A stretch of 64,000 nucleotides of DNA from Candidatus Rokuibacteriota bacterium (GTDB lineage Bacteria > Methylomirabilota > Methylomirabilia > Rokubacteriales > CSP1-6): positions 12,068 through 76,067 of the forward strand of contig JACPCW010000088.1 in the NCBI GenBank assembly GCA_016184365.1. Reading direction: 5' to 3'. The stretch's first letter is position 1. Every line of letters begins with the position of its first letter. The position numbers were made by a program, and so were the translations under genes. Below, in pieces: positions 30,880 through 48,826 of the stretch. The notes beneath the pieces are model-generated. The model saw nothing but the letters and a program-made list of their open reading frames with translations, did not search any database and was not told where the DNA came from.

Positions 30880-30927
30880 CTCCTGTCCGTCAGGTCGGCC
30901 CGGGCCGGGAACGGCCGGCGCCTTCCG

Positions 30928-31131: not shown

Positions 31132-31295
31132 GCTCGCGTCCTCCCGCCGATCCGGTCAACCGCCGTCGGCTGCGAGATATTCCTGCTCGGCGCGTCGATA
31201 TCCGGCGCATTCGATCCAGGTCGACGGTCGTCGCGACCGCGCCTGCCGCCATCGTGACTCGAAGAGGGCCGATGCTCGTCTTCATGAGGTCATGC

Positions 31296-31919: not shown

Positions 31920-32021
31920 CGTCGCGGCTCTCCTCGGCCCACACCTCGGATACCCCTGAATTCCGCGCGCCGCCGGGAAGTCCATTCGTCCGCCTCATTT
32001 CCGTGGACTCGCATTCCTGGG

Positions 32022-32348: not shown

Positions 32349-32545
32349 GCGCTGTGCCAGACCCGGGCAATACGGTGCGGTGCCCTGCATGTGCGCGCGG
32401 TGGCTAGCAGTTCCTACGAGTCGAGGCAGGGAAGGCGAGCGCAGGGCCGCACAGGGCGTCCCGATATCTTGGGAGCTTCACGACATGTTGGGACGGCGCC
32501 GTGAGGAGGACCTGGGGCCCGAGGCCGGCACCGGCTCCCAGCTAG

Positions 32546-33198: not shown

Positions 33199-33855
33199 AT
33201 GAAGGTTACGCTCCAAGCTCGTGTCGGGCTCGCTGTCGCTCTCGTGCTCGTCGCGTTCGCCAGCCGGGACGCCGCCGCCGGCGCGCCCACCGAACAGTTT
33301 CGCCACTACGCCGACCGGGCCCTCGAGGTCCTGGGCGCTGCCGATCTCCAGAAGGCGAGCGCCACCGAGGAGCGCCGGGCCGAGCTCCGCAGGACCGCCA
33401 GCGACGCCTTCGACTTCGGGGAGATGACGAAGCGCACGCTCGCCCGGCACTGGCAGGTGCGCACGCCGGCCGAACGCGAGGAGTTCATCGCGCTCTTCGT
33501 CTCCCTCCTCGAGCACGCCTACCTCGGCAAGATCGAGCTGTACCGCGGCGAGAAGGTGAGCTATGTCGGCGAGTCGATCGACGGCGACCAGGCGACCGTG
33601 CGCACCAGGATCGTGACCAAGCAGGGCGCGGAGGTCCCGGTCGACTATCGGATGCACCGCCGGGGCGACCGCTGGCTCGTCTACGACGTCGCCGTCGAGG
33701 GGATCAGCCTCGTCGGGAACTATCGCACGCAGTTCGACCGGATCATCCGGCGGTCGTCGTACACGGAGCTGGTCGCGAAGCTGAGGTCGAAGGAGTTCCC
33801 GGTCCCCGAGGCCGCGAGCGCGAAAGGGCCCTCGCGCGACGGCCAGGCGCGATGA
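33199..33855 (+). CDS. MlaC/Ttg2D-like periplasmic lipid-binding protein
   Basis: AGGAG Shine-Dalgarno and a signal peptide. FDFGEMTKRTLARHW..REEFIALFVSLLEHAYLGKI..WLVYDVAVEGISLVGNYRTQF. Confidence 0.8.
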   Translation: MKVTLQARVGLAVALVLVAFASRDAAAGAPTEQFRHYADRALEVLGAADLQKASATEERRAELRRTASDAFDFGEMTKRTLARHWQVRTPAEREEFIALFVSLLEHAYLGKIELYRGEKVSYVGESIDGDQATVRTRIVTKQGAEVPVDYRMHRRGDRWLVYDVAVEGISLVGNYRTQFDRIIRRSSYTELVAKLRSKEFPVPEAASAKGPSRDGQAR

Positions 33856-33890
33856 ACGAGAGCGCGACCCGGCGCCGAGCCCGTCGGGCC

Positions 33891-35090
33891 TTACCTGCGG
33901 GCTGCCGACGAGGCGAGCTCCGGCTCGACGATCGCGGAGATCACGTGCACCGCCGCCGTGATGCCCGCCCACACGACCGCCGCGGCGAAGGAGAAGGCCG
34001 GCGTCCCGAGGAGGAAGCCGGGGAGGAAGATCCAGGCGTAGATGTTGCGGCGGCCGCTGATCCTTCGAAAGCGGCGGAGAAACGAGCTGACCTCGGCCAG
34101 GTTCCGGCCGCGAAAGCGCGAGACCCAGATGTTCGCCAGGTTGTCGGTCACGTCGAACGCCACCATCGCCAGCGCAGCGCCCCAGGCCCACGGATGCCCG
34201 TGCGTCGACAGGCGGAACCCGAGAGCGACGTACCACGAGTTCTCGTAGAAGAAATCGAGCACGTGCTCGAGCTCACCGGGCTTCGAGGTCATGCGCTTGA
34301 TCCGGGCGAGCTTGCCATCGACGCCGTCCAGCACCTCGACGACGATCGCGAGCAGGACGCCAACCCGCAGCCACCCCGTCGCGAACAGGCCCGCCACCCC
34401 GAAGCCGAGGAGGCCGGTGGCCGCGGTCACCTGGTTGGGCGTGATCCGCGTGCGGCAGAGCAGCCGTACCAGGACATTCTCGAACGTGGGGTCGAAGTAT
34501 CGAGCCGGCAGGTCCAGCGTGCGCTTCTGTACGTGATCGAGAAGGACCCTCCAGCCTTCCTCGGCATCCCGGTCCGAGGTCACGCGAAGGAGGTGCACCG
34601 GGACGTCTCCGCGCTGCTCCTTCCAGTACGCCGGAAAGTCGGTGATCGCGACCACGGCGGCGGAGGCGAGGGAACGGGGCGGCTCGAGCAGGATCGTTCG
34701 CCCGACCGTTCCCAGGAGCTCGGGCTCCCTGGCGTTCGCCGTGACGAGCGTGTCGGCCGTTCGGGCGGCGAGCCAGGAGAGGATTCGCGGATCGACGAGA
34801 AGATCGGCGCCGATCACGAGGAAGCGCTCGCGCAGGAAGCCGCTCGCCGCCCGCAGCATCGTCCACGGGTCTCCCGGAGCGACACGCACGACGCGGACCG
34901 GCGTGGCGACGCGGCAAGAGGGCTCGGCGGGCCCAGCGCGAGGACCGCGGACGATCAGGATCTCCTGCAGGCTTCCGAGCTCGGAGAGCTGTCGCAGCAG
35001 CCGCTCGATCAGCGAGAGGCCCCCGACCTCGCGTGACGGGTCTCCCCCATCCGGGACGCAGACGATCACCGCCTGGGTCACGGGGGTCAT
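33891..35090 (-). CDS. nucleotidyltransferase-like domain fused to CDP-alcohol phosphatidyltransferase-like membrane domain (degenerate motif)
   Basis: ATGA overlap with the radical SAM stop. The motif reads DGVDGKLAR-x8-G, but the two downstream Asp of the consensus are not in register (GELEHVLD). Confidence 0.7.
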   Translation of the reverse strand: MTPVTQAVIVCVPDGGDPSREVGGLSLIERLLRQLSELGSLQEILIVRGPRAGPAEPSCRVATPVRVVRVAPGDPWTMLRAASGFLRERFLVIGADLLVDPRILSWLAARTADTLVTANAREPELLGTVGRTILLEPPRSLASAAVVAITDFPAYWKEQRGDVPVHLLRVTSDRDAEEGWRVLLDHVQKRTLDLPARYFDPTFENVLVRLLCRTRITPNQVTAATGLLGFGVAGLFATGWLRVGVLLAIVVEVLDGVDGKLARIKRMTSKPGELEHVLDFFYENSWYVALGFRLSTHGHPWAWGAALAMVAFDVTDNLANIWVSRFRGRNLAEVSSFLRRFRRISGRRNIYAWIFLPGFLLGTPAFSFAAAVVWAGITAAVHVISAIVEPELASSAARR

Positions 35091-36007
35091 CGGCGGCCCT
35101 CGATCCCCTGCCGGCGCCATTCGTCATAGGCGGACGCGGTTCGCGCGCAGCCGATGCTGCACATCTCGCGGCATGGCTTCACCGCGTGGAACTGTCGCTT
35201 CAGGTCGTCGAGCGAATAGTCCATCAGGTCCTTCGAGAAGAGTTCCCGGCTCTGGCTGCACCAGTGGACCTGGCCGAACTCGTCGACGTAGAGGTACCGG
35301 GCTCCCGCCCGGCAACGGAACGGAGCCGTCCCCGCCTGGATCAAGCGCTCCCGATAGTCGCCTGCCTCCCGGCCCGCCCGTCCGAGGATCCGCTTCACCT
35401 CGTGGTACGCCGCCAGCTCCTCCGGAGACAGCTTCACGCGGCCGAGCTCGTCGTGGATGAGTAAGACTCTCGGCACGAACCCGTGGCTCCGCGCGAAGCG
35501 CACGACCTCGATGGCCTCCTCCGGCGGCGCGCTGCCGATGACCGCGCTGAGGACGACCCGGAAGCGCGCCGACCGCGCGAGCATCTCGAGGCGACCGCGC
35601 AACGAGTGGAGCACCTTCAGGGTCGTCCCGTTGCGGCGGACGCCGTCGAGGCTCAGTTGGAGATCGGTCAGTCCGGCCGCGTTCAAGCCTTCGATCGTCT
35701 CATTCGTCAGGCGGTACCCGTTGGTGATCATCTGGCGGCGGCGGAAGCCGAGCTCGCGCATCCGGCGAACGAGCTTCAAGAGGTCCGGATGGAGCGTCGG
35801 CTCCCCACCGGTCAGACACACGACCCAGGCGCGCAGATCGCGGAGCTTTCCGAGACGCTGATCGAGCGTGACGAACGGGACGGGGTCGGAGACCGTGTCG
35901 TACTCGAAGCAGTACCCGCAGGAGAGGTTGCAGCGGCGGGTGACGACGAGCTGGGCGAGGAACGGGCCGTATCCCAGCCACTGCGCCCAGGAGAGTGGAA
36001 CGGCCAT
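35087..36007 (-). CDS. radical SAM protein (small, ~306 aa)
   Basis: CNLSCGYC (Cx3Cx2C), GGEPTLH, and C-terminal extra Cys (CRAGARY..HWCSQ..CREMCSIGC). Confidence 0.85.
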   Translation of the reverse strand: MAVPLSWAQWLGYGPFLAQLVVTRRCNLSCGYCFEYDTVSDPVPFVTLDQRLGKLRDLRAWVVCLTGGEPTLHPDLLKLVRRMRELGFRRRQMITNGYRLTNETIEGLNAAGLTDLQLSLDGVRRNGTTLKVLHSLRGRLEMLARSARFRVVLSAVIGSAPPEEAIEVVRFARSHGFVPRVLLIHDELGRVKLSPEELAAYHEVKRILGRAGREAGDYRERLIQAGTAPFRCRAGARYLYVDEFGQVHWCSQSRELFSKDLMDYSLDDLKRQFHAVKPCREMCSIGCARTASAYDEWRRQGIEGRR

Positions 36008-36031
36008 GGCGTCCGATCTTCCGGCGGAGCC

Positions 36032-37039
36032 CTAGATGCCCGACCCGGCGACGACGTCACGACGGTGTTGGCGCTGTCGCCAGTGGAGGGCGCTGAACGC
36101 CCCCAGGCCAAGGGCGATCTCGGCGATCTGGGTCAGGCGGAACGCGAGACCGACGGCCAGGCCGGCGGCGGCCGGCAGGCCAAGCGCTGTGAAGATCAGC
36201 ACCTTGCCGCCCTCCTGGACTCCGATCGAAGCCGGGACGAGAAACAGCGCGAGCTGGACCAGGAGCGAGAACGTCTCGATGGCGACGCAGGTGAGGAGAT
36301 CCGCGGGGAGCCCGAGCCAGCGAAGCAACAGGAACACCTGCAGCACGCCGATCGCGAAGGCCGAGAGATGCCAGGCGACGGAGCGGAGAAAATCGCCGCG
36401 CCGCAGCACGAGGACGTCGCGAATCTGGTCGTCCAGGGAGCCGGTGGCGCGCCGCAGCCAGTCGGTCCAGTACTCCGGAAGGCCGAGCCTTCCGGCCGCG
36501 GCCCCGGTCGCCGCGAAGAGCCCCCGGCGCTGCAGCCCAAAGAAGGCCGCCAGGCCGGCGAGCGTCAAGCCGAGCGCTCCGAAGAGTGCGCGAGAGATCG
36601 ACGTCGGCACGTCGAGGCCCCGAAAGGCGACCAGGAGGCCGCACAGGACGAAGACCGACTGCGCCACGCCGTAGGAGAGCTTGGCGGTGATGACGCTGGC
36701 CCAGGCGTTCGCCGCGGCCACGTACGGGCGCAAGAGCATCACCTTCACCGGCTCGCCGCCCACCGTTGCGGCCGGGACGGCCTGGTTGACGGCGGTCCCG
36801 GCCAGGCGCACCAGGAACAGCACGGGAAAGCTCACCGTGCGGTCGCTCGGCGCGAAGGTGAGTCGCCAGCCCATCGTATTCACCGCGTCGACCGCGAGCT
36901 CCAGGCCGACGATCACGGCGATCCCCCAGCCGATCTGGCCGAGATCGGCGACGATCGTCCAGGGGCCGATGCCGTAGATCAGGGAGGCGAACAGGCCGAG
37001 GCCGAGAACGAGAGCGGCGAGCTGCAGGCGCTGACTCAC
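36032..37039 (-). CDS. LPG-synthase-TM/UPF0104 family flippase-like membrane protein
   Basis: GTGA overlap with the upstream stop. About 8 TM segments; N-terminal pattern LGLGLFASLIYGIGPWTIVADLGQIGW. Confidence 0.7.
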   Translation of the reverse strand: MSQRLQLAALVLGLGLFASLIYGIGPWTIVADLGQIGWGIAVIVGLELAVDAVNTMGWRLTFAPSDRTVSFPVLFLVRLAGTAVNQAVPAATVGGEPVKVMLLRPYVAAANAWASVITAKLSYGVAQSVFVLCGLLVAFRGLDVPTSISRALFGALGLTLAGLAAFFGLQRRGLFAATGAAAGRLGLPEYWTDWLRRATGSLDDQIRDVLVLRRGDFLRSVAWHLSAFAIGVLQVFLLLRWLGLPADLLTCVAIETFSLLVQLALFLVPASIGVQEGGKVLIFTALGLPAAAGLAVGLAFRLTQIAEIALGLGAFSALHWRQRQHRRDVVAGSGI

Positions 37040-38184
37040 GACGTCCCGCGCCTCCGACCCACCCACGCGAGCAGGAGCAGGAAGGTCGGCGCGCCGACCG
37101 CGGTCAGGAACAGGAACCATCGCGCCTTCCCGAACGCCGCCAGGAGGACGATCAGGTAGATGAAGTCCCGGTGAGCGAGTGCGTCGGCCAGGCGCGACGC
37201 CGGGGAGTGCGCGTTCTCCTCGGTCGAGGCCCGCATGCCCCGCCCGTAGACGACAGCCGCCGCCGCCGCCGTGCTCACGACCGTCACGGCGCCCAGGAGC
37301 AGAGGCCACACCGCGCGGGCATCGAGACTCCAGCCAACGGCCATGGCGCTGAAGACCGCGACGTGCACCAGGTTGTCGCCGCCCGTGTCGAGCATCGCGC
37401 CCGTTCGCGACTCCAGGAACTTCAACCGGGCCAGCTCGCCGTCACAGCCGTCGAGGATCGAGTGGGTGAGAAAGAGGAGCGCCCCCGCGAGTTGCCAGGC
37501 CGGGGCGGAGGACAGGAAGAACGGCGCAGCCAGCAGCCCGACGGCGACGCTGACGAGGGTCATCACGTTCGGAGTGAGGCGGGTGGCGCAAAACCGTCGC
37601 GTCAGTGCCAGCGACAGGTGCCGCTCGAAGTGTCGGGACATGAAACCTTCGCTCGGCTTGACGAGGCCGCGCAACAACCAGGCCTCCGCCGCCGGCACAT
37701 CGCGGAGCGCGCCGAGCACGGACCTCCCGTTTCCGTCCGGGGCGAGATCGACGGTCCCCGACATCGGGCCCAGCGCTGCCACGAGCTCGGCCATGCTGCG
37801 GCTCCTCGCGGCCGCGGCAACGATGCGTTCGGGGTCCTTCGTCTCGACGACGGCGACCGATGTGCCGTCCACGTAGAGGCGCTCGGGTTGGGCGGGAAAC
37901 TCGCACAGCGATCGCAGCCATCGAGGGTGCGGCACCACGTTCATCGCGATCACCACGAGGCGGCGAAGCGGGGGCAACGGGTGCGACCCATTCGGGATCA
38001 GCGGGAGCGCGGCCGTACCCGCCAGCAGGCGTGTGTCATCCGACCGAGAGAGGCTCACCAGGACACACCGGAAACCCGCCCGGCCCGCCGCGAGCACAGT
38101 GCGGCGCACGAGGGGAACGCCGGCGAGCTTCGTTCCCGGCGGGACCCGTTCGCCGTGGCCCGGCGTGGACGGCAGGACGATCAA
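37036..38184 (-). CDS. nucleotidyltransferase-like domain fused to CDP-alcohol phosphatidyltransferase (canonical motif)
   Basis: DGCDGELAR-LKFLESRT-G-AML-D-TGG-D fits DGx2ARx8Gx3Dx3D exactly. The TTG start at 38184 is tentative. Confidence 0.75.
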   Translation of the reverse strand: MIVLPSTPGHGERVPPGTKLAGVPLVRRTVLAAGRAGFRCVLVSLSRSDDTRLLAGTAALPLIPNGSHPLPPLRRLVVIAMNVVPHPRWLRSLCEFPAQPERLYVDGTSVAVVETKDPERIVAAAARSRSMAELVAALGPMSGTVDLAPDGNGRSVLGALRDVPAAEAWLLRGLVKPSEGFMSRHFERHLSLALTRRFCATRLTPNVMTLVSVAVGLLAAPFFLSSAPAWQLAGALLFLTHSILDGCDGELARLKFLESRTGAMLDTGGDNLVHVAVFSAMAVGWSLDARAVWPLLLGAVTVVSTAAAAAVVYGRGMRASTEENAHSPASRLADALAHRDFIYLIVLLAAFGKARWFLFLTAVGAPTFLLLLAWVGRRRGTS

Positions 38185-38225
38185 CGCCGCTTCCCCGAGC
38201 GAGTCCGGTCGCGCCGCGTCCTGTT

Positions 38226-39284
38226 TCAGGTCGACGATCCCGCAGCCGGAACCGGGAGCAGGAGCGGCGCCGACGCCAGCGGAAGCGCGCGCCCCCCTCG
38301 TCGGCTCGATTCCCGGGCCAGCGCTTCGAGCGCGACGCAGAGCGACGCCTCCGCCAGATTCGCCGCCCGTCGCCTCGAGCCATTCATTGCCGCGATGAAG
38401 GAGTCCGCCACCCGGTCGAACCACTCGGGATCATAGGATCCATCGGACAGTGCCGGCGGACACGGCCATCGCTGCTCGCAGCCGCGCCGGCTCAGCACGA
38501 GCGTACCGTCCTCCAGCCGGATGCTGCCGTCGGTGCCCGTGAGCTCGGCCCAGGTGCGTCTCGCGTCGGAGGCCCACGTCAGCAGGACGTCCGCCGTTGC
38601 GCCCGGGAAGGTCAATCGGAGCGTCGCGGTGTCCTCGACGGCCAGCTCCGTGAATCGCCGCCGCTCGAGCGTCGCGCTGATCGAGGTCGGGCTCCCTCCC
38701 ATCCAGCGCCGGAGCAGGTAGAAGACATGCCAGCCGTGATCGCTGAGGACTCCGCCGCCGGCCACGATGGGATCGACGCGCCAGTTCTTGCTGTCGGCCT
38801 CGGCGATCGCCGCCGGCTTCGTCCTGAGTGTTTGCCAGACCACACGCCGCAACCGGCCGATCGCCCCGTCTCGGACGAGGTCCCAGGTGCGCCGGATGAT
38901 CGGCGCGTGGTGCCAATTGTGGACCGTCTGGAGAACGCGGTCGCTCGCGGCCGCGCGACGAGCCACCGCGGCGAGGTCGGCGACGGAGCAGACGAGCGGC
39001 TTTTCGCAGAGCACGTGCAGGCCCCGATCGAGGGCCGCGCGGATCAACCCGGCATGGCTCGACGGCGGGGTGCAGATATCGATGAAGTCGAGGTCCTCGC
39101 GCGCCATCAGCTCGGCCGTCGAGTCGTGCCACCGGGCGCGCGGCAAGCGCGCCTCGATCTCGGCCCGGCGTGCTGCGCGCGCGTCGGTGGCCGCGACGAT
39201 CTCGACCGCGTCGTGGGCCAGCCAGCCCGGCAGATGCGCGCGGACGGCAATGTTGCCGAGACCGATGATCGCCCCGCGCAGCAT
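38226..39284 (-). CDS. Gfo/Idh/MocA family NAD(P)-dependent oxidoreductase
   Basis: GAIIGLGNIAVRAHLP Rossmann start and the LCEKPL motif. Confidence 0.85.
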   Translation of the reverse strand: MLRGAIIGLGNIAVRAHLPGWLAHDAVEIVAATDARAARRAEIEARLPRARWHDSTAELMAREDLDFIDICTPPSSHAGLIRAALDRGLHVLCEKPLVCSVADLAAVARRAAASDRVLQTVHNWHHAPIIRRTWDLVRDGAIGRLRRVVWQTLRTKPAAIAEADSKNWRVDPIVAGGGVLSDHGWHVFYLLRRWMGGSPTSISATLERRRFTELAVEDTATLRLTFPGATADVLLTWASDARRTWAELTGTDGSIRLEDGTLVLSRRGCEQRWPCPPALSDGSYDPEWFDRVADSFIAAMNGSRRRAANLAEASLCVALEALARESSRRGGRALPLASAPLLLPVPAAGSST

Positions 39285-39285
39285 C

Positions 39286-40614
39286 CTACTCGAGCCCGTG
39301 CTGGCGAAGGACCACGCCGAGGGCTTCGTCGAATCGGTCGAGGCCGTCCAGCGCGGTCGCTTCGCTGATGATCAGCGGCGGATTGAGCCGGATCGTGGGC
39401 GAGTAGCACATCGCGACCAGGCCGCGCCTCAGGCATTCTCGATAGAGTGCCTGTGTGACTTCTCGGGCGACAGGCGCCTTCGTCGCGCGGTCCCTCACGA
39501 GCTCGATCCCCAGCATCAGGCCCTTCCCCCGCACGTCGCCGACCGAGCGGTATTTCTCCCCGAGCGCGGCGACGCGCTCGAGCATGACCGTGCCCACGCG
39601 CTCCGCGTTCTTGACCAGGTTCTCCCTGAGGATGATCTCGAGCGACGCGAGCCCGGCCGCCGCGGCCAGCGGGTTCCCCCCGTAGCTCGAGGAGCTGGCG
39701 CTCGGATTCGACCACGGCGTGCGACTGGTGAGATCGGCGGTGGAGATGACGCCGCTCAGCGGGAACCCACCGCCCATGCCCTTGCCAACGGTCATGACGT
39801 CCGGGATCACGCCATCGTGATCCGATCCCCACATGGCGCCGGTCCGGCCGAAGCCGGTCAACATCTCATCCGCGATCAGCAGGGCGCCGTGCTCCCGGGC
39901 GATCGTCTCGATGGCGCGGAGGAATCCCTCGGGCGGGACGACGTTCCCGGCTGTCCCCTGGATGGGCTCGACGATGATGGCGGCGATCTCGCCGCTCGTC
40001 TGGTAACGAATCACGTCTCGGAGATACTCGGCGCACGCCATCCCGCACGCCGGATAGCGAAGCCTCAGCGGACAGCGGTAGCAGTTGGCGTACGGCGAGA
40101 GGTACTGGCCCGGCAGGAACGGCCCGAGGTGGTGCTTGAAGTCGCTGCCGAGGAGACCCAGGACGCCACCGGTCTTGCCGTGAAAGGCGCCCCAGAAGCC
40201 CACGACCTCGTGCTTTCCCGTCGCCGCCTTCGCCAGCCGCAGGGCCGCCTCCACGGCTTCCGCGCCGCCGGAGAAGAGCTGGATGCGCGTGAGCCCGGGC
40301 GGAGTGACGGTCGCGAGCAGCTCGAGGAGACGGGCACGAGTTTCGGTGGTGAAGCTGCCAAACGTCAGCTGCTCGACCTGCCGTTTCAGCGCCTCCACGT
40401 AATCCGGGTGGCAGTGCCCCACGCTGCCGACGCCGATGCCCGCGATGAAGTCGATGTACTCGCGGCCGTCCTCGTCGACCAGCGTGCACCCGCTGCCCCG
40501 GGCCATCGCCAACCCGGCGTAGAGGGCGTAGGACTGGACGCCCGGCGCGACGTGGCGCTGTTCACGGGCCACGATGGCGCGCGACCTGGGGCCCGGAGCG
40601 CTTCCCGTCGTCAT
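39286..40614 (-). CDS. class III (PLP) aminotransferase
   Basis: IADEMLTGFGRTGAMWG and TVGKGMGGGFP motifs. ATGA overlap with the upstream stop. Confidence 0.85.
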   Translation of the reverse strand: MTTGSAPGPRSRAIVAREQRHVAPGVQSYALYAGLAMARGSGCTLVDEDGREYIDFIAGIGVGSVGHCHPDYVEALKRQVEQLTFGSFTTETRARLLELLATVTPPGLTRIQLFSGGAEAVEAALRLAKAATGKHEVVGFWGAFHGKTGGVLGLLGSDFKHHLGPFLPGQYLSPYANCYRCPLRLRYPACGMACAEYLRDVIRYQTSGEIAAIIVEPIQGTAGNVVPPEGFLRAIETIAREHGALLIADEMLTGFGRTGAMWGSDHDGVIPDVMTVGKGMGGGFPLSGVISTADLTSRTPWSNPSASSSSYGGNPLAAAAGLASLEIILRENLVKNAERVGTVMLERVAALGEKYRSVGDVRGKGLMLGIELVRDRATKAPVAREVTQALYRECLRRGLVAMCYSPTIRLNPPLIISEATALDGLDRFDEALGVVLRQHGLE

Positions 40615-42169: not shown

Positions 42170-42849
42170 GCCAGGAGCTTCCCGAGGTCCGCGAGCGCCT
42201 GGATCACCGGGTCACCCGGGCAGCAGGGCTGGGCCCGGGGCACTCCCGGGCCGGCGACCCATACGTGGCGCATCCCGGCGGCCCGCGCGCCGGCCATGTC
42301 GCGCGGCAGGGAGTCGCCGACCATCACGGTCTCCGCGGGTTCCACGCCGAGCGCCGCCGCCGCGACATGGAAGATCCGAGGATCCGGCTTCCGGCAGCCG
42401 ATGTCCTCCGAATCGATGAGCACATCGACGAACTCGCTGACTTCGCACTCCGCGCACACGGTGGCGAGGTTGCCGTAGAAGTTCGAGACGATCGCCAGGC
42501 GATAGCGGCGCCGGAGGGCGGCGAGGAGCGAGGCGTTGCGACGGAGCGTTCTCGAGGCTCGCTCGAGAAACCGCGTCGCGATGCGACCGACCAGGGCGTC
42601 GTCGCGGATGTCCAGGCCGCGGTTGATCCCCGCCAGGAGGCGGAACACGGTTTCCTGGAACGACAGCGTGGAGGGCACCGCGCCGACGAGCGCGTCGTCG
42701 GCGGCGTAGAAGAGGGCGTCGAAGCGCTGGGGTGGGATGACCAGCCCTTCTTCGCGGTACAGCCGGCTCACGCGCTCCTTCCACGGCAGGCCGTCGGCGT
42801 CCAGCGTTCCGCCGAAATCGAACAGCACCGCGCGGTAGCCAGTGAGCAC
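42166..42849 (-). CDS. HAD superfamily hydrolase (motif I DFGGT)
   Basis: AVLFDFGGTLD, IVSNF, KPDPRIF and MVGDSLPRD motifs. Start tentative (GTG 42849; the ORF stays open up to 42939). Confidence 0.75.
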   Translation of the reverse strand: MLTGYRAVLFDFGGTLDADGLPWKERVSRLYREEGLVIPPQRFDALFYAADDALVGAVPSTLSFQETVFRLLAGINRGLDIRDDALVGRIATRFLERASRTLRRNASLLAALRRRYRLAIVSNFYGNLATVCAECEVSEFVDVLIDSEDIGCRKPDPRIFHVAAAALGVEPAETVMVGDSLPRDMAGARAAGMRHVWVAGPGVPRAQPCCPGDPVIQALADLGKLLA

Positions 42850-43008
42850 AGGCGGTTCGGGGCAGGTGAGCCCGGGTGGCCGCGAGGAGTCGCAGCTCTT
42901 CAAGGTGCGACTGAACTCTCCGTCCGCACCATGGCGCATTCAATGCAGAGGAGCACCCATCCTCCTAGAGCGTTTGACTCGTCCCGGGACGTTCGACCTG
43001 TCCCTCTC

Positions 43009-43037
43009 TGAGACGGAGTCTCGCTCCCGTAAGATTC
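43009..43037 (-). promoter_or_regulatory. ECF-type promoter candidate GAATC-N17-CGTCTCA (faces the lipid operon)
   Basis: The plus strand reads TGAGACG-N17-GATTC. Confidence 0.6.
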
Positions 43038-43050
43038 GCGGGCGCCCAGC

Positions 43051-43079
43051 GAATCCGACTCACGGCGCCTTCCGTCTCA
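43051..43079 (+). promoter_or_regulatory. ECF-type promoter candidate GAATC-N17-CGTCTCA (faces the RND exporter)
   Basis: Back-to-back with 43009-43037. The -10 ends 5 nt before GTG 43085. Confidence 0.6.
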
Positions 43080-43084
43080 GGAAC

Positions 43085-45922
43085 GTGACGGGGGACGCCG
43101 CTGCGCACAGTCGCCGTGCCGTGCCACGAGTTCTCTCGGCGCTGGCCCTGCGGCATCCGCTCGGTCTCGCCGTCGCGGCCGCCCTGCTGGCGGTCCTCGG
43201 ATTCGGCCTCGCGGCCACCCGGCTCGAGTTCCACACCAGCCGTGGGGCGCTGATCGCGGACGGAGACCGCTCCCGACAGCTCAACGCGCGCTACGAGCAG
43301 GAGTTCGAAGAGTTGCCGGAGCGGGTCGTGGTGGCGATCGCGAGCGACGATCCGGAGTCCGCCAAAGGGTTCGCGACCGCGTTGGGACAGCGATGGCAGC
43401 GAGATCCGGACATCGAACAGGTCCTCGCTCGCATCGAACCCGGCGCCCTGAAACGGAAGGGACTCTACTACCTGTCTCCTGACGAGCTGGTCGCGCTGAG
43501 AGGGCGGCTCGAAACCCACCGCGACCTCCTCCGCGACCTCGTCGCCTCGCCTACGCTGGCGAATCTGCTGGCGCTGATCAACCGCGACGTCACCGCGGGG
43601 CTCGTGGCCCGCGCGTTCGCGATCGGGGGCGACGAGACCGCCGACGATGCCGTCGACCTCGCCCCGCTTCTCGCGATCCTTCGGCAGATGAACGAGTCGT
43701 TGGCCGACACTCGGCCGTTCCAGTCTCCCTGGCCGGCATTGCTCGGAACGGGACCGAGAGCCGCCTCCGAGGACGGGTTCCTCCGGTCGGACGACAAGCG
43801 CCTCCTGTTCGTCCTCGCGAATCCGAAGGCGAGCGCCGGGGACTTCAACCGGTTCGGACGGGCGGTGACGAAGATCCGGGCCGACGCGCAGGACTTGCGA
43901 CGGGCCTATCCGAACGTCGAGGTCGGGATCACGGGGCGGGCGGTGCTCGAATCCGACGAGATGGCGGCGGCGAAGCGAGACATGACCCTCGCCTCCCTGA
44001 TCTCGCTTGCCGGCATCACGCTCCTGTTCGTCGTCTTCTTCAAAGGAATCGTGAGACCGGCCATCGCCGCCGTCACGCTCGTGATCGGCGTGGGCTGGTC
44101 GCTCGGCTTCGCCACCCTGACCGTCGGGCACCTGAACATCCTCTCCATCGCCTTCCTGCCGATGCTCGTCGGGCTCGGCATCGACTACGGGATCCACTTC
44201 GTTGCGCGCTACGAGGAGGAGCGATCCGGGGCCCGTCAGGTCGGCGCCGCGCTGGCCCGGACGGTCAGCGGCGCGGGCCGGGGCATCGCGACCGCCGCCC
44301 TCACGACCGCACTCGGGTTCTTCGCGCTGCTGCTCACCGACTTCAAGGGGCTCGCGGAGCTCGGACTGATCAGCGGGAGCAGCGTGCTCCTGACCGCGCT
44401 GGCCACCTTCGTCGTGATGCCGGCGCTGCTCGTCCTCTCCGAGGCCGGCCCCCTGGGCCGCATGGTGCCCGCGCGCGCCGGCCAGGCGCGCGCGGACGGC
44501 GGCTATCTCGCGACGGTGGTCCGCTATCCCCGGCTCACGCTCACGCTCAGCGCGTTGCTGATCGGCGTGAGCGTGCTGGCGCTCGGGAGCGTCCGCTCCG
44601 ACTTCAATCTCCTCCACCTGCAGGCCGAGGGCACCGAGGCCGCACGGTGGGCGCAGAGGATCTTCGAGAGCGCCTCGCGTTCCGTCCTCTTCGAGGAAGT
44701 CGCCGCCGGGTCTCTGGCGGAGGTCCGGCGGAAAGTCGTGGCGCTCGAGGTCCTCCCCTCGGTCGCCGACGTCGAGAGCATCGCCTCGGTGCTCCCCGAG
44801 GATCAGGAGGCGAAGCGCCCGCTCGTCGAGGCCATCAAGCCGCTCGTGGCCGATCTCTCGTTCGGCAGGGTCGTGGCCACGTCCGTCGACGTGGGCGCCG
44901 TCCGGAGCACGCTCGGCCGGATCACGTTCAAGCTCGGCGGCGACGGCGCCGCGGACCCTGACCCGGGAGACCCTTCACTCGACCGCGACCGCCACGAGGC
45001 CCGGGGCCTGATCGAAGCGTTTCTCGCCACGGCCGCGCGAAGGGACAAGGCGGACGTCGATCGCGCCCTCGTCGCCTTCCAGGAGCGGCTGTTCGGGGAC
45101 CTGCGGGAGAAGCTCGGCCTGCTCACGGCGAGCGCGAGCGCGTCGCCCGTGACGGTCGACGACCTGCCGCCCGAGCTTCGCGCGCGCTATGTCGGCAGGA
45201 CGGGCCAGTATCGTCTCTTCGTCTTCCCCTCCGCCGACGTCTGGGAGTTTGCGCCGCTGGCCCGGTTCGTCGAGGACGTGCGGTCGGTGGATCCTGACGC
45301 GCACGGCACGCCGGGCCGAACGTTCGAGTATCTCCGCACGATGAGAGAAGGATACGAGCGCGCCGCGCTCTATGCGTCCGTGGCCGTCGCGCTCGTGGCG
45401 TTCCTCACGTTCCGCGCCCTCCAGCCCGCCCTGCTCGCGCTCGTGCCCCTGATCGTCGGAGGCCTCTGGACCTTGGGGCTCATGGGACTCGTCGGCGTGG
45501 CGTTCAACCCGGCGAACCTCCTGCTCCTGCCGTTGATCGTGGGCATCGGCATCGACAGCGGCATCTATGTCGTCCAGCGCGTTCGCGAGAGCGGCGGCGC
45601 CGGCGCCCCGCTTCCGCGCAGCACCGGCCGGGCGATCACGCTCTCGGCCCTGACGACGATGGTTGGATTCGGCAGCCTGATGATCTCCGGCCATCGCGGG
45701 ATCTCGAGCCTCGGGCTCGTCGTCGTCCTGGGCGTCGGGAGCGTCCTGGTCGCGTCGCTGACGACGCTGCCGAGCCTCGTTGCGCTCCTGGCCCGTCGGC
45801 GGGCCGCAGTATCCGGCGGCGATCGAGCAGCGGCGGTGGACACCGGGCGTGTCCGGCTCCACACTCCAGCCGGGCTCGAGGCGGCGCCGGCTGAACACCG
45901 CGAGCGGGTGGTCTCGTCGTGA
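43085..45922 (+). CDS. RND-superfamily MMPL-type exporter (HpnN-like)
   Basis: Two 6-TM bundles, each preceded by a large soluble domain. SLISLAGITLLFVVFF..FLPMLVGLGIDYGIHF is repeated as ..LLLLPLIVGIGIDSGIYV. The start may be GTG 43121. Confidence 0.8.
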   Translation: MTGDAAAHSRRAVPRVLSALALRHPLGLAVAAALLAVLGFGLAATRLEFHTSRGALIADGDRSRQLNARYEQEFEELPERVVVAIASDDPESAKGFATALGQRWQRDPDIEQVLARIEPGALKRKGLYYLSPDELVALRGRLETHRDLLRDLVASPTLANLLALINRDVTAGLVARAFAIGGDETADDAVDLAPLLAILRQMNESLADTRPFQSPWPALLGTGPRAASEDGFLRSDDKRLLFVLANPKASAGDFNRFGRAVTKIRADAQDLRRAYPNVEVGITGRAVLESDEMAAAKRDMTLASLISLAGITLLFVVFFKGIVRPAIAAVTLVIGVGWSLGFATLTVGHLNILSIAFLPMLVGLGIDYGIHFVARYEEERSGARQVGAALARTVSGAGRGIATAALTTALGFFALLLTDFKGLAELGLISGSSVLLTALATFVVMPALLVLSEAGPLGRMVPARAGQARADGGYLATVVRYPRLTLTLSALLIGVSVLALGSVRSDFNLLHLQAEGTEAARWAQRIFESASRSVLFEEVAAGSLAEVRRKVVALEVLPSVADVESIASVLPEDQEAKRPLVEAIKPLVADLSFGRVVATSVDVGAVRSTLGRITFKLGGDGAADPDPGDPSLDRDRHEARGLIEAFLATAARRDKADVDRALVAFQERLFGDLREKLGLLTASASASPVTVDDLPPELRARYVGRTGQYRLFVFPSADVWEFAPLARFVEDVRSVDPDAHGTPGRTFEYLRTMREGYERAALYASVAVALVAFLTFRALQPALLALVPLIVGGLWTLGLMGLVGVAFNPANLLLLPLIVGIGIDSGIYVVQRVRESGGAGAPLPRSTGRAITLSALTTMVGFGSLMISGHRGISSLGLVVVLGVGSVLVASLTTLPSLVALLARRRAAVSGGDRAAAVDTGRVRLHTPAGLEAAPAEHRERVVSS

Positions 45923-46362
45923 GCGGCTCGGTCACGAGGACGACGGCACACGCGACACGCGGCTCCCTCGGCGCCGGTTTCGCGGATCTGCGCGGCGCCC
46001 GCGTGCTGCTTCTCGCTCTCGGTCTCACACTCGTCGCCGGCCTGACGTGGCAGGTCGGCCCGAAGAACGTCCTCGACCATTTCCAGTCGTTGGGCTGGCC
46101 GCTCGTCTTCGCCGTGCTCCCCTACATCCTCGTCGTGATCCTCGACGCCGTCGCCTGGCGTGACACGTTCGACCACGCCGTGCTCACTCTGCCCGCGGCG
46201 ATCGCGTTCACGCTCCTGCGGCGGCTGAGATAGCTCGTGTGGGCGGTGATCGGCTTCTTCCTGCTGAGTTCGTGGGAGACCCCCGCCACCGCCCACCACA
46301 CCACCCAACGCTCGGCGGGCGCCGGGAACCCGGCGCCCGCGTCGAGCACCACGAGCTCCTGA
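45919..46362 (+). pseudogene. internally deleted UPF0104/LPG-synthase-TM paralog
   Basis: GTGA-coupled to the RND stop. About 95 aa of N-terminus are homologous to the CDS at 36032-37039. A TAG at 46231 follows, and the same frame then continues with a C-terminal-like helix LVWAVIGFFLLSSW. Confidence 0.55.
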
Positions 46363-46379
46363 CGGAGGCCGCCGTGAGG

Positions 46380-47267
46380 ATGGTTCAGCTCATCGTCAAC
46401 CCGATCGCCGGCAGGGGCCATGGCGCTGGCGTGGTTCCCGCCATCGAGGCACGGCTTCGGCGCCTCGGCTGTGAGGTCGCAACGTTTGTCACGCGACGAC
46501 GGGGCGACGCGCGCGAGTTCGCGGCGTCACTCGAGCGGACGACCTCACTCCTCCTGGTCGTCGGCGGCGACGGCACGCTGAACGAGGTCGTCAACGGGCA
46601 GGTCGAGATTCCGCTGGCACTCTTCCCCGTCGGCACCGGCAATGCCTTCGCCGCCGATCAAGGAATCGGCGGCACGCTCGACGCTCTCGAAGCCCTGGTC
46701 CGGGACGGCGTGCCCCGGTGGTTCGATCTGGGCGCCGCCGGCGGCCGGAAGTTCATCAACATGGCGTCGTGCGGGATTCTCGGGCAGATCCACCGCGCGT
46801 TCTGGGTCGGCCGCCGGGGACCGGACAGCTTCGTCCGATGCCTCCTGACGGCCTTCGGGATCCTCCGGCGAGGGCTGTTCCGTCCGGTCACGATCCGGTG
46901 CGACGGCCGGATGGTGGATCGTGTGGCCCACATCGTCGTCGTCGGGAACACCCGCACCTACTCTCCGGGCGTGAGCTTCACCCCGGAGGCCTCGCCCTTC
47001 GACGGCGCGCTCGACGTCTGCACGCTGCCGGCCCCCCGAGCCGTCGACCTGGTGCGATGGCTGGTGGGCGTCCTGCGCCAACAGCGCCTCGAGGACCCGA
47101 GGATCGGCTACCTGCGTGCCCGGACCGTCCACATGGGCGGCACGGGGATCGAGTGCCACGTCGATGGCGAGTACGTCGGCCCGGGCCCCCTGTCGGTCTC
47201 CGTGCTCCATCGCCACGTGCAGATCCTCGTCCCTCCCGCGACCGTGGCGAGGGTCGCGATCGCATGA
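46380..47267 (+). CDS. diacylglycerol kinase catalytic domain family lipid kinase (YegS/BmrU-like)
   Basis: LIVNPIAGRG and VVGGDGTLNEVVNG motifs. Confidence 0.8.
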   Translation: MVQLIVNPIAGRGHGAGVVPAIEARLRRLGCEVATFVTRRRGDAREFAASLERTTSLLLVVGGDGTLNEVVNGQVEIPLALFPVGTGNAFAADQGIGGTLDALEALVRDGVPRWFDLGAAGGRKFINMASCGILGQIHRAFWVGRRGPDSFVRCLLTAFGILRRGLFRPVTIRCDGRMVDRVAHIVVVGNTRTYSPGVSFTPEASPFDGALDVCTLPAPRAVDLVRWLVGVLRQQRLEDPRIGYLRARTVHMGGTGIECHVDGEYVGPGPLSVSVLHRHVQILVPPATVARVAIA

Positions 47268-47302
47268 GTGACAGCATGACTTCTTCTCGTGAAAGGAAGG
47301 CG

Positions 47303-47896
47303 ATGGCGATGAAGAGCGGCGCATTCGTCGGTCTGGTGATGCTGGGCCTCCTGAGCGATCTCTGGCTGGCCATGCCCGCCGACGCCGGACCGCGGGAGCG
47401 CGTCGGCGAGCTCGTGGGTGGTGTTGCGGCGGTGGTCCGTGATCCGGCGCTTCAGAACACCGAACGTCAGGCCCGGGTGCGAGCGATCATCGATGGGACG
47501 TTCGACTTCGAGGCGATGGGCCAGCAGGCGCTCGGAACTCGCTGGCAGGCCCTGACACCCGCGCAGCGAGACGAGTTCGTCGGCCTCTTCGCGGAGCTCT
47601 TCAAGCGCTCCTACACCCGCCTGGTGCTCCGGTTCCTCGGCGACCGCAGGACGACATACGTGACGGAGTCGACCACCGGGAACCGCGCGGCGGTCGAGAC
47701 CATGCTCGCGGGCGGCAAGGAGGAGCGGCTGCCGGTGGGTTACCGGCTCGCACGCAAGCACGAGCAATGGCAGGTAGTCGACGTCGTGATCGATGGCGTG
47801 AGTCTGGCGGAGGGCTACCGCGCGCAGTTCGAACGGATCGCCCGCAACTCCTCGTACGAGACGCTGCTTCGACGCATGCGCGGCAAGGCGCAATAG
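47303..47896 (+). CDS. MlaC/Ttg2D-like periplasmic lipid-binding protein (second copy)
   Basis: Signal peptide; FDFEAMGQQALGTRW..RDEFVGLFAELFKRSY..WQVVDVVIDGVSLAEGYRAQF. Alternative ATGA-coupled start at 47264. Confidence 0.8.
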   Translation: MAMKSGAFVGLVMLGLLSDLWLAMPADAGPRERVGELVGGVAAVVRDPALQNTERQARVRAIIDGTFDFEAMGQQALGTRWQALTPAQRDEFVGLFAELFKRSYTRLVLRFLGDRRTTYVTESTTGNRAAVETMLAGGKEERLPVGYRLARKHEQWQVVDVVIDGVSLAEGYRAQFERIARNSSYETLLRRMRGKAQ

Positions 47897-47905
47897 GAGG
47901 GCTGC

Positions 47906-48826
47906 ATGGTCAGGGGACGGAAGGATATGTGGTTACGGGAATGGCTGGTGGCGGTCGCCGTCGCAGCCGTCATCGCAGTCGGCGCCGCGCCCGCCGCGAG
48001 TGGCGCGCCAGGCCTCGAGCCACCGCCGGGGAGCGATTCGCAGCTCGAAGCGAGCGGGGCCGACGGTTCCGAGGTCGCCACGACGGCCGCGCCAGCCGGT
48101 CCGAGCGGTGAGAGTCAGACGGAGACGCGCGCGGCCGCGGAAGACGGAGCGCTGGAGGAACACGATCCCTGGGAGCGGTTCAACGAGCGCATGTTCGAGT
48201 TCAACCGCCGGGTCGACCGGTACGTCCTGAAACCTGTGGCGAAAGGCTGGGACAAGGTTGTCCCCGACGAAGTACAGCGAAGCCTCAAGAACGTGCTCAA
48301 GAACGCGGCGATGCCCAAGCGTCTCGTGAACAATCTCCTCCAGGGGAAGTTCGAGGGTGCGGTCCGGGAACTCAGCCGCTTCATGCTCAACACCACGGTC
48401 GGCGTGGGCGGTCTGTTCGACATCGCGACGCACGAGGGCATTCCTGAAAGCGCTACGGACACCGGGCAGACCCTGGGCGTCTGGGGGGCGGGCCCGGGGC
48501 CCTACCTGGTCTTGCCGTTCCTGCCTCCGCTGACGGTCCGTGACGGCATCGGATTCGCCATCGACTCGCTGCTGGATCCGATCAGCTACGTCGCCCCGTT
48601 CGCGGCGAACGTCGGGACCTCGGTAGGGGAACGCGTGAACGAGCGCTCGGTCAACCTCGAAACCTTCGACGACTTCGAGGCGGGCACCCTCGACCTCTAC
48701 AGCGCTGTCCGGAACGCGTACCTGCAACGGCGGCAGAAGGCGATCCAGGAGGACGCCGGGAGCCGCCGGGAGGGATGGCCTCAGCCGTGGCCCGAGGATT
48801 CGGCGGCAACCTCGGAGGCGCCCTAG
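47906..48826 (+). CDS. mlaA: MlaA/VacJ family outer-membrane lipoprotein
   Basis: AGGAGG Shine-Dalgarno. DPWERFNERMFEFNRRVDRYVLKPVAKGW..NTTVGVGGLFD. Confidence 0.85.
   Translation: MVRGRKDMWLREWLVAVAVAAVIAVGAAPAASGAPGLEPPPGSDSQLEASGADGSEVATTAAPAGPSGESQTETRAAAEDGALEEHDPWERFNERMFEFNRRVDRYVLKPVAKGWDKVVPDEVQRSLKNVLKNAAMPKRLVNNLLQGKFEGAVRELSRFMLNTTVGVGGLFDIATHEGIPESATDTGQTLGVWGAGPGPYLVLPFLPPLTVRDGIGFAIDSLLDPISYVAPFAANVGTSVGERVNERSVNLETFDDFEAGTLDLYSAVRNAYLQRRQKAIQEDAGSRREGWPQPWPEDSAATSEAP

Follow-up and report, generated by a model that had tools for sequence, protein, structure and literature searches.

The 64,000-nucleotide stretch of contig JACPCW010000088.1 from an uncultured Candidatus Rokuibacteriota soil bacterium (Methylomirabilota) that was analysed here (the window) contains, between positions 33199 and 48826, an operon of nine genes faced by a divergently transcribed set of envelope genes. 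Our analysis suggests, with a confidence somewhat above even, that this locus directs the synthesis, flipping and outer-membrane export of a tailored inositol-phosphoryl membrane lipid. Comparison of related loci uncovered a core shared across phyla, comprised of MIPS, a nucleotidyltransferase, two CDP-alcohol phosphotransferases, a radical SAM enzyme and an HpnL-like protein, joined in some cases by an RND pump. The sequences suggest a kinship of the locus with CDP-alcohol/phosphotransferase-based systems for the synthesis of polar-lipid head groups, apparently equipped with dedicated export. The domain identities, the operon structure, the co-location across phyla and the link to MIPS are observed directly, whereas the substrates, the order of the steps and the transport roles presented below are inferred from the sequences and their gene context.

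Organization and conservation of the locus

Genes were called from a listing of open reading frames (ORFs), their translations and a filter on third-position G+C, the G+C content being about 69% throughout the 64 kb. Nine co-directional minus-strand genes with high third-position G+C run from 42849 to 33891, as a first-pass annotation of this DNA had described, and the five 4-nt overlaps it reported were all verified (GTGA at 42166, 41435 and 37036; ATGA at 40611 and 35087). The Pfam and NCBIfam profile searches that it had proposed recovered in the operon a HAD-IA hydrolase, NTP_transf_3, Aminotran_3, GFO_IDH_MocA, LPG_synthase_TM and Radical_SAM, as well as CDP-OH_P_transf in two fusion-type proteins, here termed Fus1 and Fus2. 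The same searches detected an MMPL/HpnN-like protein, DAGK_cat with YegS_C, two MlaC proteins and MlaA among the plus-strand genes; the divergent arm that faces the operon encodes the RND pump, a 104-aa ORF, the lipid kinase, MlaC and MlaA. Identical genes were found only on Logan metagenomic contigs of at most 6 kb.

Single-protein tblastn searches for synteny under-detected diverged HpnL-like and CDP-alcohol-transferase genes, and the comparison was hence rerun with several seeds and iterated hidden Markov models, giving 84 radical SAM loci in which partners were counted within 10 kb. A CDP-alcohol phosphotransferase is encoded near the radical SAM gene in 26 of these loci, an HpnL-like protein in 25, a nucleotidyltransferase in 23, MIPS in 12, DXS in 11 and an RND pump in 10, and the survey thus bears out a co-conserved head-group, flippase-like and exporter locus. 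One alphaproteobacterial metagenome-assembled genome (MAG; L055) reproduces the complete set of the window, encoding the HAD, nucleotidyltransferase, ATP-grasp, class III aminotransferase, Gfo, radical SAM, Fus1, HpnL-like, MlaA and RND proteins. Much of this set is also present in Acidobacteriota (L031), Verrucomicrobiota (L073, L021), Myxococcota and further Rokubacteria (L090). The acidobacterial locus L031 combines a squalene/phytoene-synthase-family (SQS-like) gene with DXS, HpnL-like, HAD, nucleotidyltransferase, ATP-grasp, Fus1, MIPS and radical SAM genes; the Opitutales locus L021 comprises MMPL, HpnA, Fus1, MIPS, nucleotidyltransferase, Fus2, DXS, radical SAM, DUF2141 and HpnL genes; and L091 has radical SAM, CDP-OH transferase and LPG_synthase_TM genes. 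In the cluster of Anaeromyxobacter oryzae (L010), genes for an AUR1-like PAP2_3 protein, HpnR and Gfo are accompanied by those for a class III aminotransferase and for a short CDP-alcohol transferase of the canonical kind. One further Rokubacterium (L090) possesses HAD, nucleotidyltransferase, ATP-grasp, aminotransferase, Gfo, Fus1, CopD and LPG_synthase_TM genes and no radical SAM gene. Of the nine-gene pathway originally envisaged, therefore, the core is shared across phyla, whereas the HAD, ATP-grasp, aminotransferase and Gfo genes represent lineage-specific tailoring. In both L090 and L088 the Gfo/Fus1 genes are followed by a gene for a membrane protein of the CopD family (L090 11184-12752, between Fus1 and the LPG_synthase_TM gene; L088 13458-14960).

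Two CDP-alcohol phosphotransferases with distinct active-site motifs

Fus1 (37036-38184, minus strand; CDP-OH_P_transf 45 bits, above the Pfam cutoff) is a canonical CDP-alcohol phosphotransferase of the Af2299/DIPPS class with 6 transmembrane (TM) helices. Its start is uncertain, TTG at 38184 being the choice of the public gene call in an ORF that is open to 38424. The class I CDP-alcohol phosphotransferase signature D-x2-D-G-x2-A-R-x8-G-x3-D-x3-D, located on TM2-TM3, is present as DGCDGELARLKFLESRTGAMLDTGGD at 37452-37375, in agreement with the canonical DGx2ARx8Gx3Dx3D motif noted earlier. The best PDB match of Fus1 is Af2299 (125 bits), followed by AfIPCT/DIPPS (82) and phosphatidylinositol-phosphate (PIP) synthases (34-54), and archaetidylinositol-phosphate synthase (AIPS) is likewise among its close relatives. 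Neither fusion belongs to the bifunctional IPCT/DIPPS family NF041135 (Fus1 78 and Fus2 43 bits versus a cutoff of 580), and the alignment with this family covers the C-terminal domain only.

Fus2 (33891-35090, minus strand; CDP-OH_P_transf 28 bits) joins a variant CDP-alcohol phosphotransferase to a cytidylyltransferase-like N-terminal domain. Its motif, DGVDGKLARx8Gx2Ex3D at 34328-34254, fits the above signature only as a Gx2Ex3D variant and had been regarded as degenerate in the first-pass annotation. This view needs to be corrected: the variant DGxDGKxARx8Gx2Ex3D is fixed across phyla, with the same DG[VL]DGK[LQ]ARx8Gx2EHx2D present in Opitutales, Verrucomicrobiae, Acidobacteria, Myxococcota and Rokubacteria. 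Alignment with Af2299 reduces the difference to a one-residue deletion and a D to E substitution, with all four acidic residues kept, and the conservation of the motif and of these residues in five phyla argues that Fus2 is not decayed. Genes of the Fus2 type are also the usual immediate neighbors of the radical SAM gene.

The NTP-transferase-like N-domains previously ascribed to both fusions are retained as a faint likeness (NTP_transf_3 in Fus2, E 0.001), but the GxGxR motif is absent. Comparison of the fusion N-domain with an NTP-transferase profile gave an hhalign probability of 11%, and a stray match to the N-domain of Af2299 was also seen; Af2299 and AfIPCT/DIPPS both carry the cytidylyltransferase-like N-domain (PMC4634129).

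The inositol connection and candidate lipid anchors

MIPS is encoded inside orthologous clusters at 12 loci from several phyla, including L021, L031, L086, L011 and L055. Its presence there points to myo-inositol-1-phosphate as the polyol, and the sugar or polyol phosphate postulated in the earlier annotation is thereby both supported and narrowed. The stand-alone nucleotidyltransferase (41435-42169, minus strand; NTP_transf_3 43 bits) has an intact AAGxGSRL...KPL motif that is invariant across its orthologues, retains the residues of IMPCT-type cytidylyltransferases and has an orthologue adjoining MIPS in L021. An inositol-based head group is thus predicted from three features: the MIPS context, the inositol-1-phosphate users nearest to Fus1, and the IMPCT-type residues of the nucleotidyltransferase.

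A different arrangement is seen in an operon of the Anaeromyxobacteraceae, which contains PAP2_3, MMPL, HpnL-like and radical SAM genes and no CDP route. The sole PDB matches of its PAP2_3 proteins (L092 5693-6658; L085 5681-6664) are to the inositol-phosphorylceramide synthase AUR1 (E 2e-14), and these proteins would represent a second, independent way of placing phosphoinositol on a lipid alcohol.

Several associations tie related loci to hopanoids. The Anaeromyxobacteraceae radical SAM operon lies tail-to-tail with hpnG-shc-hpnCDE-hpnH-hpnA (L092, L085, L005), the A. oryzae cluster encodes HpnR (840 bits), and the Opitutales locus L021 encodes, besides DXS, HpnA (490 bits) and HpnL (276 bits), both above their NCBIfam cutoffs. 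The SQS-like and DXS genes of L031 point in the same direction, and both Methylomirabilota and Myxococcota carry HpnR. Against a hopanoid anchor, neither shc nor hpnH occurs in the 64-kb window, though they do in L085, L005 and L092, and the Hpn-like proteins of the window score below cutoff. The AUR1-like enzyme and a kinase of the DAGK family (compare the ceramide kinase CpgB) would by analogy fit ceramide equally well, and no inositol-hopanoid conjugate was reported in the literature searched. Diacylglycerol, ceramide and hopanoid anchors are all compatible with these data.

The small radical SAM enzyme

The radical SAM gene (35087-36007, minus strand) encodes a 306-aa protein that scores 76 bits with Pfam Radical_SAM (cutoff 29.5), and the CNLSCGYC motif reported for it is indeed present at 35932-35909 as CX3CX2C. 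Across 21 sequences C26, C30 and C33 are invariant, as are the C-terminal C232, C250, C279, C283 and C287, and this Cys-rich C-terminal region is a probable auxiliary Fe-S site. It is the most conserved gene product of the cluster, with 60-77% identity across phyla and to thousands of proteins, and an orthologue is encoded in 431 GTDB species; its homologues form just 175 clusters at 50% identity (E <= 1e-30; 1.84 billion representatives). The predicted structure (pLDDT 79) is nearest to the folds of BlsE, viperin, SuiB, PqqE, GDGT-MAS and MoaA, with SpeY, BtrN and AprD4 at lower ranks, and most of these neighbors modify nucleotides, sugars or cyclitols; by sequence, only the radical SAM core is near Tes and PqqE.

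Membership of several known families could be set aside. The match to Tes (NF045702) amounts to 79 bits versus a cutoff of 450 and spans residues 16-175 only; HpnJ (TIGR03471, about 470 aa) is not among the NCBIfam matches listed, and the present protein is 306 aa long with no B12-binding domain; and it fails the family test for HpnH. A review from 2026 that covers the radical SAM enzymes of lipids includes nothing similar. The closest functional analogy may be the remodelling of a lipid-linked head group in the manner of HpnJ or Cds.

Fusions within the family provide further contextual information. GT2::radical SAM proteins form two clusters (P0378, 41% identical to the window protein, and P0383), a VTT/DedA membrane domain is fused to a radical SAM domain in P0381 (40% identity), and a methyltransferase in P0361, where the orthologue is 67% identical to the window protein. 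In A. oryzae Red232 (L010 8768-10927) the HpnL-like and radical SAM regions lie in one frame with no intervening stop, which reflects a natural fusion or else the use of an internal start. In alphaproteobacterial loci (L025-L059, for example L047 8934-10891), the orthologue (about 62% identity) adjoins a paralogous 332-aa radical SAM gene between MR_MLE, LigB and Ada genes, and such pairs have a lower third-position G+C than their neighbors.

Soluble enzymes of putative head-group tailoring

The first gene of the operon encodes a HAD-IA phosphatase-type hydrolase (42166-42849, minus strand; Pfam Hydrolase 79 bits) with a DFGGTLD motif. The 275-aa product of the gene at 40611-41438 (minus strand) has zero matches in Pfam or NCBIfam, and its earlier identification as an ATP-grasp enzyme was upheld through structure only: its AlphaFold2 model (pLDDT 82) is, by Foldseek, nearest to Ddl, LysX/ArgX, RimK and PsnB (E ~1e-12, TM 0.6-0.69), which on the strength of the model makes it a ligase-like member of the ATP-grasp superfamily. 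It has 1795 homologues, mostly in Rokubacteria, and the nearest named relatives of both this protein (82% identity) and Fus1 come from Candidatus Rokubacteria/Methylomirabilota MAGs. We also considered an inositol kinase of the ITPK1 type, but the sequence match in the PDB is insignificant (E ~0.5) and the structural neighbors are ligases, leaving such a role as a minor possibility.

The class III (omega-type) aminotransferase (39286-40614, minus strand; Aminotran_3 343 bits) reaches no NCBIfam equivalog. The sugar/cyclitol oxidoreductase of the Gfo/Idh/MocA superfamily (38226-39284, minus strand; Pfam GFO_IDH_MocA and C3 domains) has weak, sub-cutoff NCBIfam matches to xylose dehydrogenase, inositol 2-dehydrogenase and UDP-GlcNAc 3-dehydrogenase.

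Flippase-like and predicted export proteins

The HpnL-like membrane protein of the LPG_synthase_TM/UPF0104 family (36032-37039, minus strand; Pfam 83 bits) has HpnL as its best family (TIGR03476, 155 bits, below the cutoff of 196), and its counterpart in the Opitutales locus scores above that cutoff. The inner-membrane exporter of the RND/MMPL superfamily (43085-45922, plus strand; Pfam MMPL), which has a GTG start at 43085 after AGGA, scores best with HpnN (TIGR03480, 586 bits versus a cutoff of 752); the values for NF052374 and BstA are 357 (cutoff 1100) and 337 bits, respectively.

It is followed by a 104-aa ORF (45919-46233, plus strand) with two or three predicted membrane helices and no Pfam match, which the first-pass annotation took for a decayed UPF0104 paralog. 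BLASTP does align it to the N-terminus of the HpnL-like protein, at the same position, but this is a single alignment at E 0.001, and the ORF is possibly a truncated LPG_synthase_TM paralogue. A lipid kinase of the YegS/BmrU type (46380-47267, plus strand; DAGK_cat and YegS_C; TIGR00147 113 bits, cutoff 119) comes next, and no counterpart of it was found in any of the related loci compared.

Two periplasmic lipid-binding proteins of the MlaC family are encoded on the plus strand, at 33199-33855 (MlaC1; Pfam MlaC 159 bits) and at 47303-47896 (MlaC2; 122 bits). Both resemble HpnM (TIGR03481) more than the E. coli-type MlaC: MlaC1, which has an N-terminal hydrophobic segment and signal peptide, scores 84 versus 39 bits, HpnM being its best NCBIfam match, and MlaC2 scores 81 versus 28, both below the HpnM cutoff of 160. 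The set is completed by an HpnS-like outer-membrane lipid-transfer protein of the MlaA/VacJ family (47906-48826, plus strand; Pfam MlaA 235 bits), a family whose genes accompany those for RND and CDP-alcohol transferase in L055 and L028, and those for MIPS/MlaC in L011. This is not the retrograde Mla system: the locus has no MlaD, MlaE or MlaF genes, and an RND pump takes their place.

A predicted pathway

These observations can be assembled into a tentative scheme. The stand-alone nucleotidyltransferase would activate myo-inositol-1-phosphate with CTP, MIPS presumably being encoded elsewhere in this genome, and the Gfo/Idh/MocA dehydrogenase and the aminotransferase would together convert a carbinol to an amine. 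The ATP-grasp enzyme could then acylate this amine, using a carboxylate that is probably that of an amino acid, while the HAD hydrolase may take off a phosphate from inositol phosphate or, alternatively, from a phosphorylated product. Fus1 is predicted to make the phosphodiester that joins the inositol unit to the lipid, with Fus2 as an assumed contributor or partner in that step, and the radical SAM enzyme would alter the lipid-linked polar group, with HpnJ and calditol synthase as functional analogues. The HpnL-like protein may then shift the product to the periplasmic leaflet, from where the HpnN-like RND pump, the two MlaC/HpnM-like carriers and the MlaA/HpnS-like protein would carry it to the outer membrane; the YegS-type kinase appears to be a window-specific addition to this export module.

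A bolder version, which we put forward as speculative and on balance improbable, is that the loci produce an undescribed lipid class, namely a hopanoid (bacteriohopanepolyol) or ceramide bearing a phospho-inositol-derived head group that is remodelled by the radical SAM enzyme, as the member of a new family, and, in Rokubacteria, aminated and amino-acylated. The hitherto unrecognized Gx2Ex3D variant would then catalyze a new transfer, and the HpnL/HpnA/HpnM/HpnN-like proteins would form the flipping and export machinery.

Alternative explanations

The chief competing explanation is a soluble polyol-phosphodiester of the di-myo-inositol-phosphate (DIP) or glycerophosphoinositol type, possibly aminated or acylated, serving as a compatible solute or periplasmic metabolite: MIPS and the nucleotidyltransferase would supply a CDP-alcohol, Fus1 would couple it to inositol-1-phosphate, the HAD enzyme would dephosphorylate the product, and the RND, MlaC, MlaA and HpnL-like genes would merely be co-regulated envelope-stress neighbors. 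Several observations favor it and weigh against a lipid. MIPS, a nucleotidyltransferase, a DIPPS-like enzyme and a phosphatase constitute the exact DIP pathway; L031 holds all four, and the window has the last three, MIPS occurring only in orthologous loci. Fus1 has the size of the 6-TM class, which uses soluble acceptors, and is nearer to Af2299 and AfIPCT/DIPPS, which share its N-domain and do not process lipids (PMC4634129), than to the lipid-processing PIP synthases. The transfer to a lipid alcohol assumed in the first-pass annotation conflicts with this class of soluble inositol-phosphate users, and the formation of a lipid would accordingly require either a CDP-lipid as donor or an acceptor of an unusual kind. 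The window also has neither MIPS nor shc, its HpnN-, HpnL- and HpnM-like proteins all fall under their NCBIfam cutoffs, and the substrates of the Gfo and aminotransferase enzymes are not assignable from sequence. Furthermore, another Rokubacterium (L088) has the five-gene HAD-to-Gfo module by itself, without membrane genes, and about 33 alphaproteobacterial MAG loci contain the radical SAM orthologue and its paralogue with none of the partners, which suggests a transferred two-gene island that the inositol-lipid model does not explain. Nevertheless, the flippase-like gene is tied into the operon by translational coupling (GTGA at 37036) and, in many phyla, recurs beside genes for a radical SAM enzyme or a CDP-alcohol transferase. 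In Anaeromyxobacteraceae the CDP route gives way to an AUR1-like lipid phosphoinositol transferase, in L011 MIPS adjoins MlaC-MlaA, and fusions to DedA and to GT2 domains occur among the relatives of the radical SAM enzyme. DIP, moreover, is known from hyperthermophiles and is not known from mesophilic soil bacteria. On the basis of the coupled flippase-like gene, the AUR1-like operon, the MIPS-MlaC-MlaA association, the radical SAM fusions and a parallel in Bacteroidetes described below, we favor a lipid and consider a solute rather unlikely, though a serious contender.

Two other explanations retain the activated cyclitol and change its destination. A CDP-activated (amino)cyclitol phosphate might decorate an envelope polymer or glycoconjugate, such as lipopolysaccharide/lipid A, a polymer of the capsular or teichoic-like type or an S-layer glycan, with the LPG_synthase_TM protein acting as an AglD-like transferase or as the flippase of a polyprenol-linked intermediate. 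CDP-glycerol and CDP-ribitol are established donors for phosphodiester-linked polymers, and the pairing of Gfo and aminotransferase resembles the GnnA/GnnB-type formation of amino sugars for lipid A, in line with the weak sub-cutoff match of Gfo to UDP-GlcNAc 3-dehydrogenase. The LPG_synthase_TM family does include AglD-type S-layer glycosylation proteins, the GT2::radical SAM fusions are compatible with polyprenol-linked sugars, and the adjacency of DXS with a polyprenol carrier; yet the window cluster lacks genes for glycosyltransferases, polymerases, Wzx/Wzy and ABC-type export of polymers, the exporters that are present (HpnN-like RND, MlaC, MlaA) are of the lipid type, and the AUR1-like enzyme of the sister operon acts on free lipids, all of which makes a polymer distinctly improbable. 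Still less probable is a diffusible natural product of the aminocyclitol type that would resemble an aminoglycoside or mycothiol and leave the cell through the RND pump. An inositol dehydrogenase with an aminotransferase forms the scyllo-inosamine route of aminoglycoside pathways, the radical SAM enzymes BtrN, SpeY and AprD4, which are among the structural neighbors of our model, tailor aminocyclitols, and an ATP-grasp ligase with a phosphatase recalls inositol-conjugate thiol pathways. Set against this are the lack of glycosyltransferases and resistance genes, an Opitutales core without aminotransferase and Gfo, and the 60-77% identity of the radical SAM enzyme over at least 6 phyla and its 431 species, which is typical of core envelope functions and not of secondary metabolism; membrane-embedded CDP-alcohol transferases and MlaC/MlaA would also lack an explanation. 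A phosphonate head group was rejected, because the PEP-mutase/isocitrate-lyase-family genes of the window (18.5-20.6 kb) sit with aconitase and PrpD genes about 20 kb off and are not co-conserved with the cluster.

Regulation and neighboring genes

Close upstream of the RND start, the divergent intergenic region (42850-43084) contains two nested pairs of inverted repeats, at 43008-17/43071-80 (a perfect 10 nt) and 43033-42/43046-55. On the plus strand, 43000-43095 folds as a long hairpin (-43.4 kcal/mol, z -1.9) whose end coincides with the AGGA Shine-Dalgarno sequence of the GTG at 43085, and which may act in the control of translation or as an operator. No Rfam family matched this hairpin or the locus at gathering thresholds, so that neither a riboswitch nor another known RNA was recognized.

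An ECF-type promoter had been proposed for both arms, but a search of both strands for G[GT]AAC-N15-18-CGT found no GGAAC..CGT-type site with consistent spacing. Upstream regions taken from the window (HAD operon, RND gene, MlaC1 and sigma operon) and from L088, L090 and L055 as orthologous loci were likewise compared and revealed no common promoter motif or spacing, and sigma-70-like sites were not detected on either arm. An ECF sigma factor gene (31296-31994, minus strand; Pfam Sigma70_r2/r4_2/ECF) is a possible candidate regulator of the locus. It belongs to a likely regulatory operon adjoining the locus (29110-32477, minus strand), which also has a STAS-domain gene (32022-32477), a 75-aa ORF (30928-31155) and a gene for a 605-aa protein without Pfam match (29110-30927); no promoter link between this operon and the lipid genes was found.

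Elsewhere in the window, the plus-strand region 470-20552 contains two genes of the aconitase family, one PrpD/MmgE gene, two sets of Opp/Dpp-type ABC transporters and two tandem genes of the PEP-mutase/isocitrate-lyase family (18520-19593 and about 19640-20552), and looks like a region of organic-acid (methylcitrate-like) metabolism unrelated to the lipid locus. The segment 20700-22500 has no ORF with coding-type third-position G+C and the lowest G+C in the window (0.66). On the minus strand are genes for a 396-aa protein whose C-terminal domain is of the cytochrome P460 type (24550-25740) and for a 1036-aa protein resembling class A penicillin-binding proteins (54442-57552), with an unusually long insert between the transglycosylase and transpeptidase domains.

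Significance and comparison with known systems

Bacterial inositol lipids are regarded as rare, and the cluster suggests a tailored inositol-phosphoryl lipid distributed among phyla abundant in soil, namely Methylomirabilota, Myxococcota, Acidobacteriota, Verrucomicrobiota, Planctomycetota and some Alphaproteobacteria. It offers two targets for enzymology, the highly conserved and unstudied radical SAM enzyme and the fixed motif variant of the CDP-alcohol phosphotransferases. It also connects the orphan HpnL, HpnA, HpnM and HpnN-like families with a specific chemistry, which opens their function to testing, and the cultured carrier A. oryzae Red232, whose cluster lies at about 3.262-3.283 Mb of NZ_AP025591.1, renders genetics and lipidomics feasible. 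As hopanoids and unusual polar lipids are geochemical biomarkers, a new class of head group could bear on environmental lipidomes.

The first-pass annotation did not recognize the gene combination as a described pathway, and indeed no description of the whole cluster was found in the literature; parts of it, however, are already candidates in published proposals, namely the Bacteroidetes cluster (PMC9246714) and the HpnN/HpnM/HpnS trio (10.1101/2025.07.29.667474). The combination of the radical SAM enzyme, the variant transferase, tailoring by amination and ATP-grasp, and the AUR1-like alternative was not found described in the literature, nor was a confirmation of the alternative CDP-inositol pathway. 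The analogies drawn earlier to IPCT/DIPPS and HpnN hold at the family level, but the window proteins do not reach the NCBIfam cutoffs.

The Bacteroidetes parallel is the putative alternative inositol-lipid cluster of Bacteroides vulgatus and Prevotella, for which a Kennedy-like route via CDP-inositol was proposed and is unconfirmed (Heaver et al. 2022, PMC9246714). An NTP-transferase, a CDP-alcohol transferase and a HAD protein encoded near MIPS, with an LPG-synthase homologue, mark the Bacteroidetes that make inositol lipids (PMC9246714). Likened by gene types, the window shares with that cluster the NTP-transferase, the CDP-alcohol phosphatidyltransferase, the HAD protein and the LPG-synthase-type homologue (BT_1521-like there). 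MIPS lies nearby in Bacteroidetes, whereas it is absent from the window and adjacent only in related loci; conversely, the Bacteroidetes cluster lacks the radical SAM enzyme, the second, variant transferase, the ATP-grasp, aminotransferase and Gfo genes and the RND/MlaC/MlaA arm. Inositol-phosphorylceramide synthases (AUR1/BT_1522) have their likely counterpart, the AUR1-matching PAP2_3 protein, only in the sister operon and not in the window. The Archaeoglobus fulgidus enzymes Af2299 and IPCT/DIPPS resemble Fus1 and Fus2 as best sequence matches and in two-domain architecture, 6-TM size and catalytic motif. Unlike the fusions, they make soluble polyol phosphodiesters with an active IPCT, whereas in the window the N-domains lack GxGxR, the nucleotidyltransferase is separate and the context is one of lipid transport.

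On the export side, HpnN with the MlaC-like HpnM and the MlaA-like HpnS has been proposed, as a prediction, to form a route for lipid (hopanoid) export (10.1101/2025.07.29.667474), alongside HpnL of unknown function (10.1101/2025.07.29.667474; PMC12583986). The window likewise unites genes of the HpnN-family RND, MlaC-like, MlaA-like and TIGR03476-like types in one locus; it differs in its sub-cutoff proteins and its lack of shc and hpnH, and classical hpn clusters have no reported inositol genes. With the flippase domain of MprF the window shares an LPG_synthase_TM domain, which in MprF moves a charged, modified lipid, but not the aminoacyl-tRNA-dependent synthase domain. The Caulobacter CpgB-CpgD sphingolipid pathway, likened here by enzyme type, similarly combines an IMPCT-like cytidylyltransferase with a DAGK-family lipid kinase, though the substrates differ. 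Finally, HpnJ and calditol synthase (Cds; PMC13459092) are, like the window enzyme, radical SAM proteins encoded with genes for head-group installation. The window enzyme is set apart by its length of about 306 aa, the lack of a B12-binding domain and a distinct C-terminal Cys motif, while the GT2 fusions of its relatives mirror the logic of HpnI and HpnJ.

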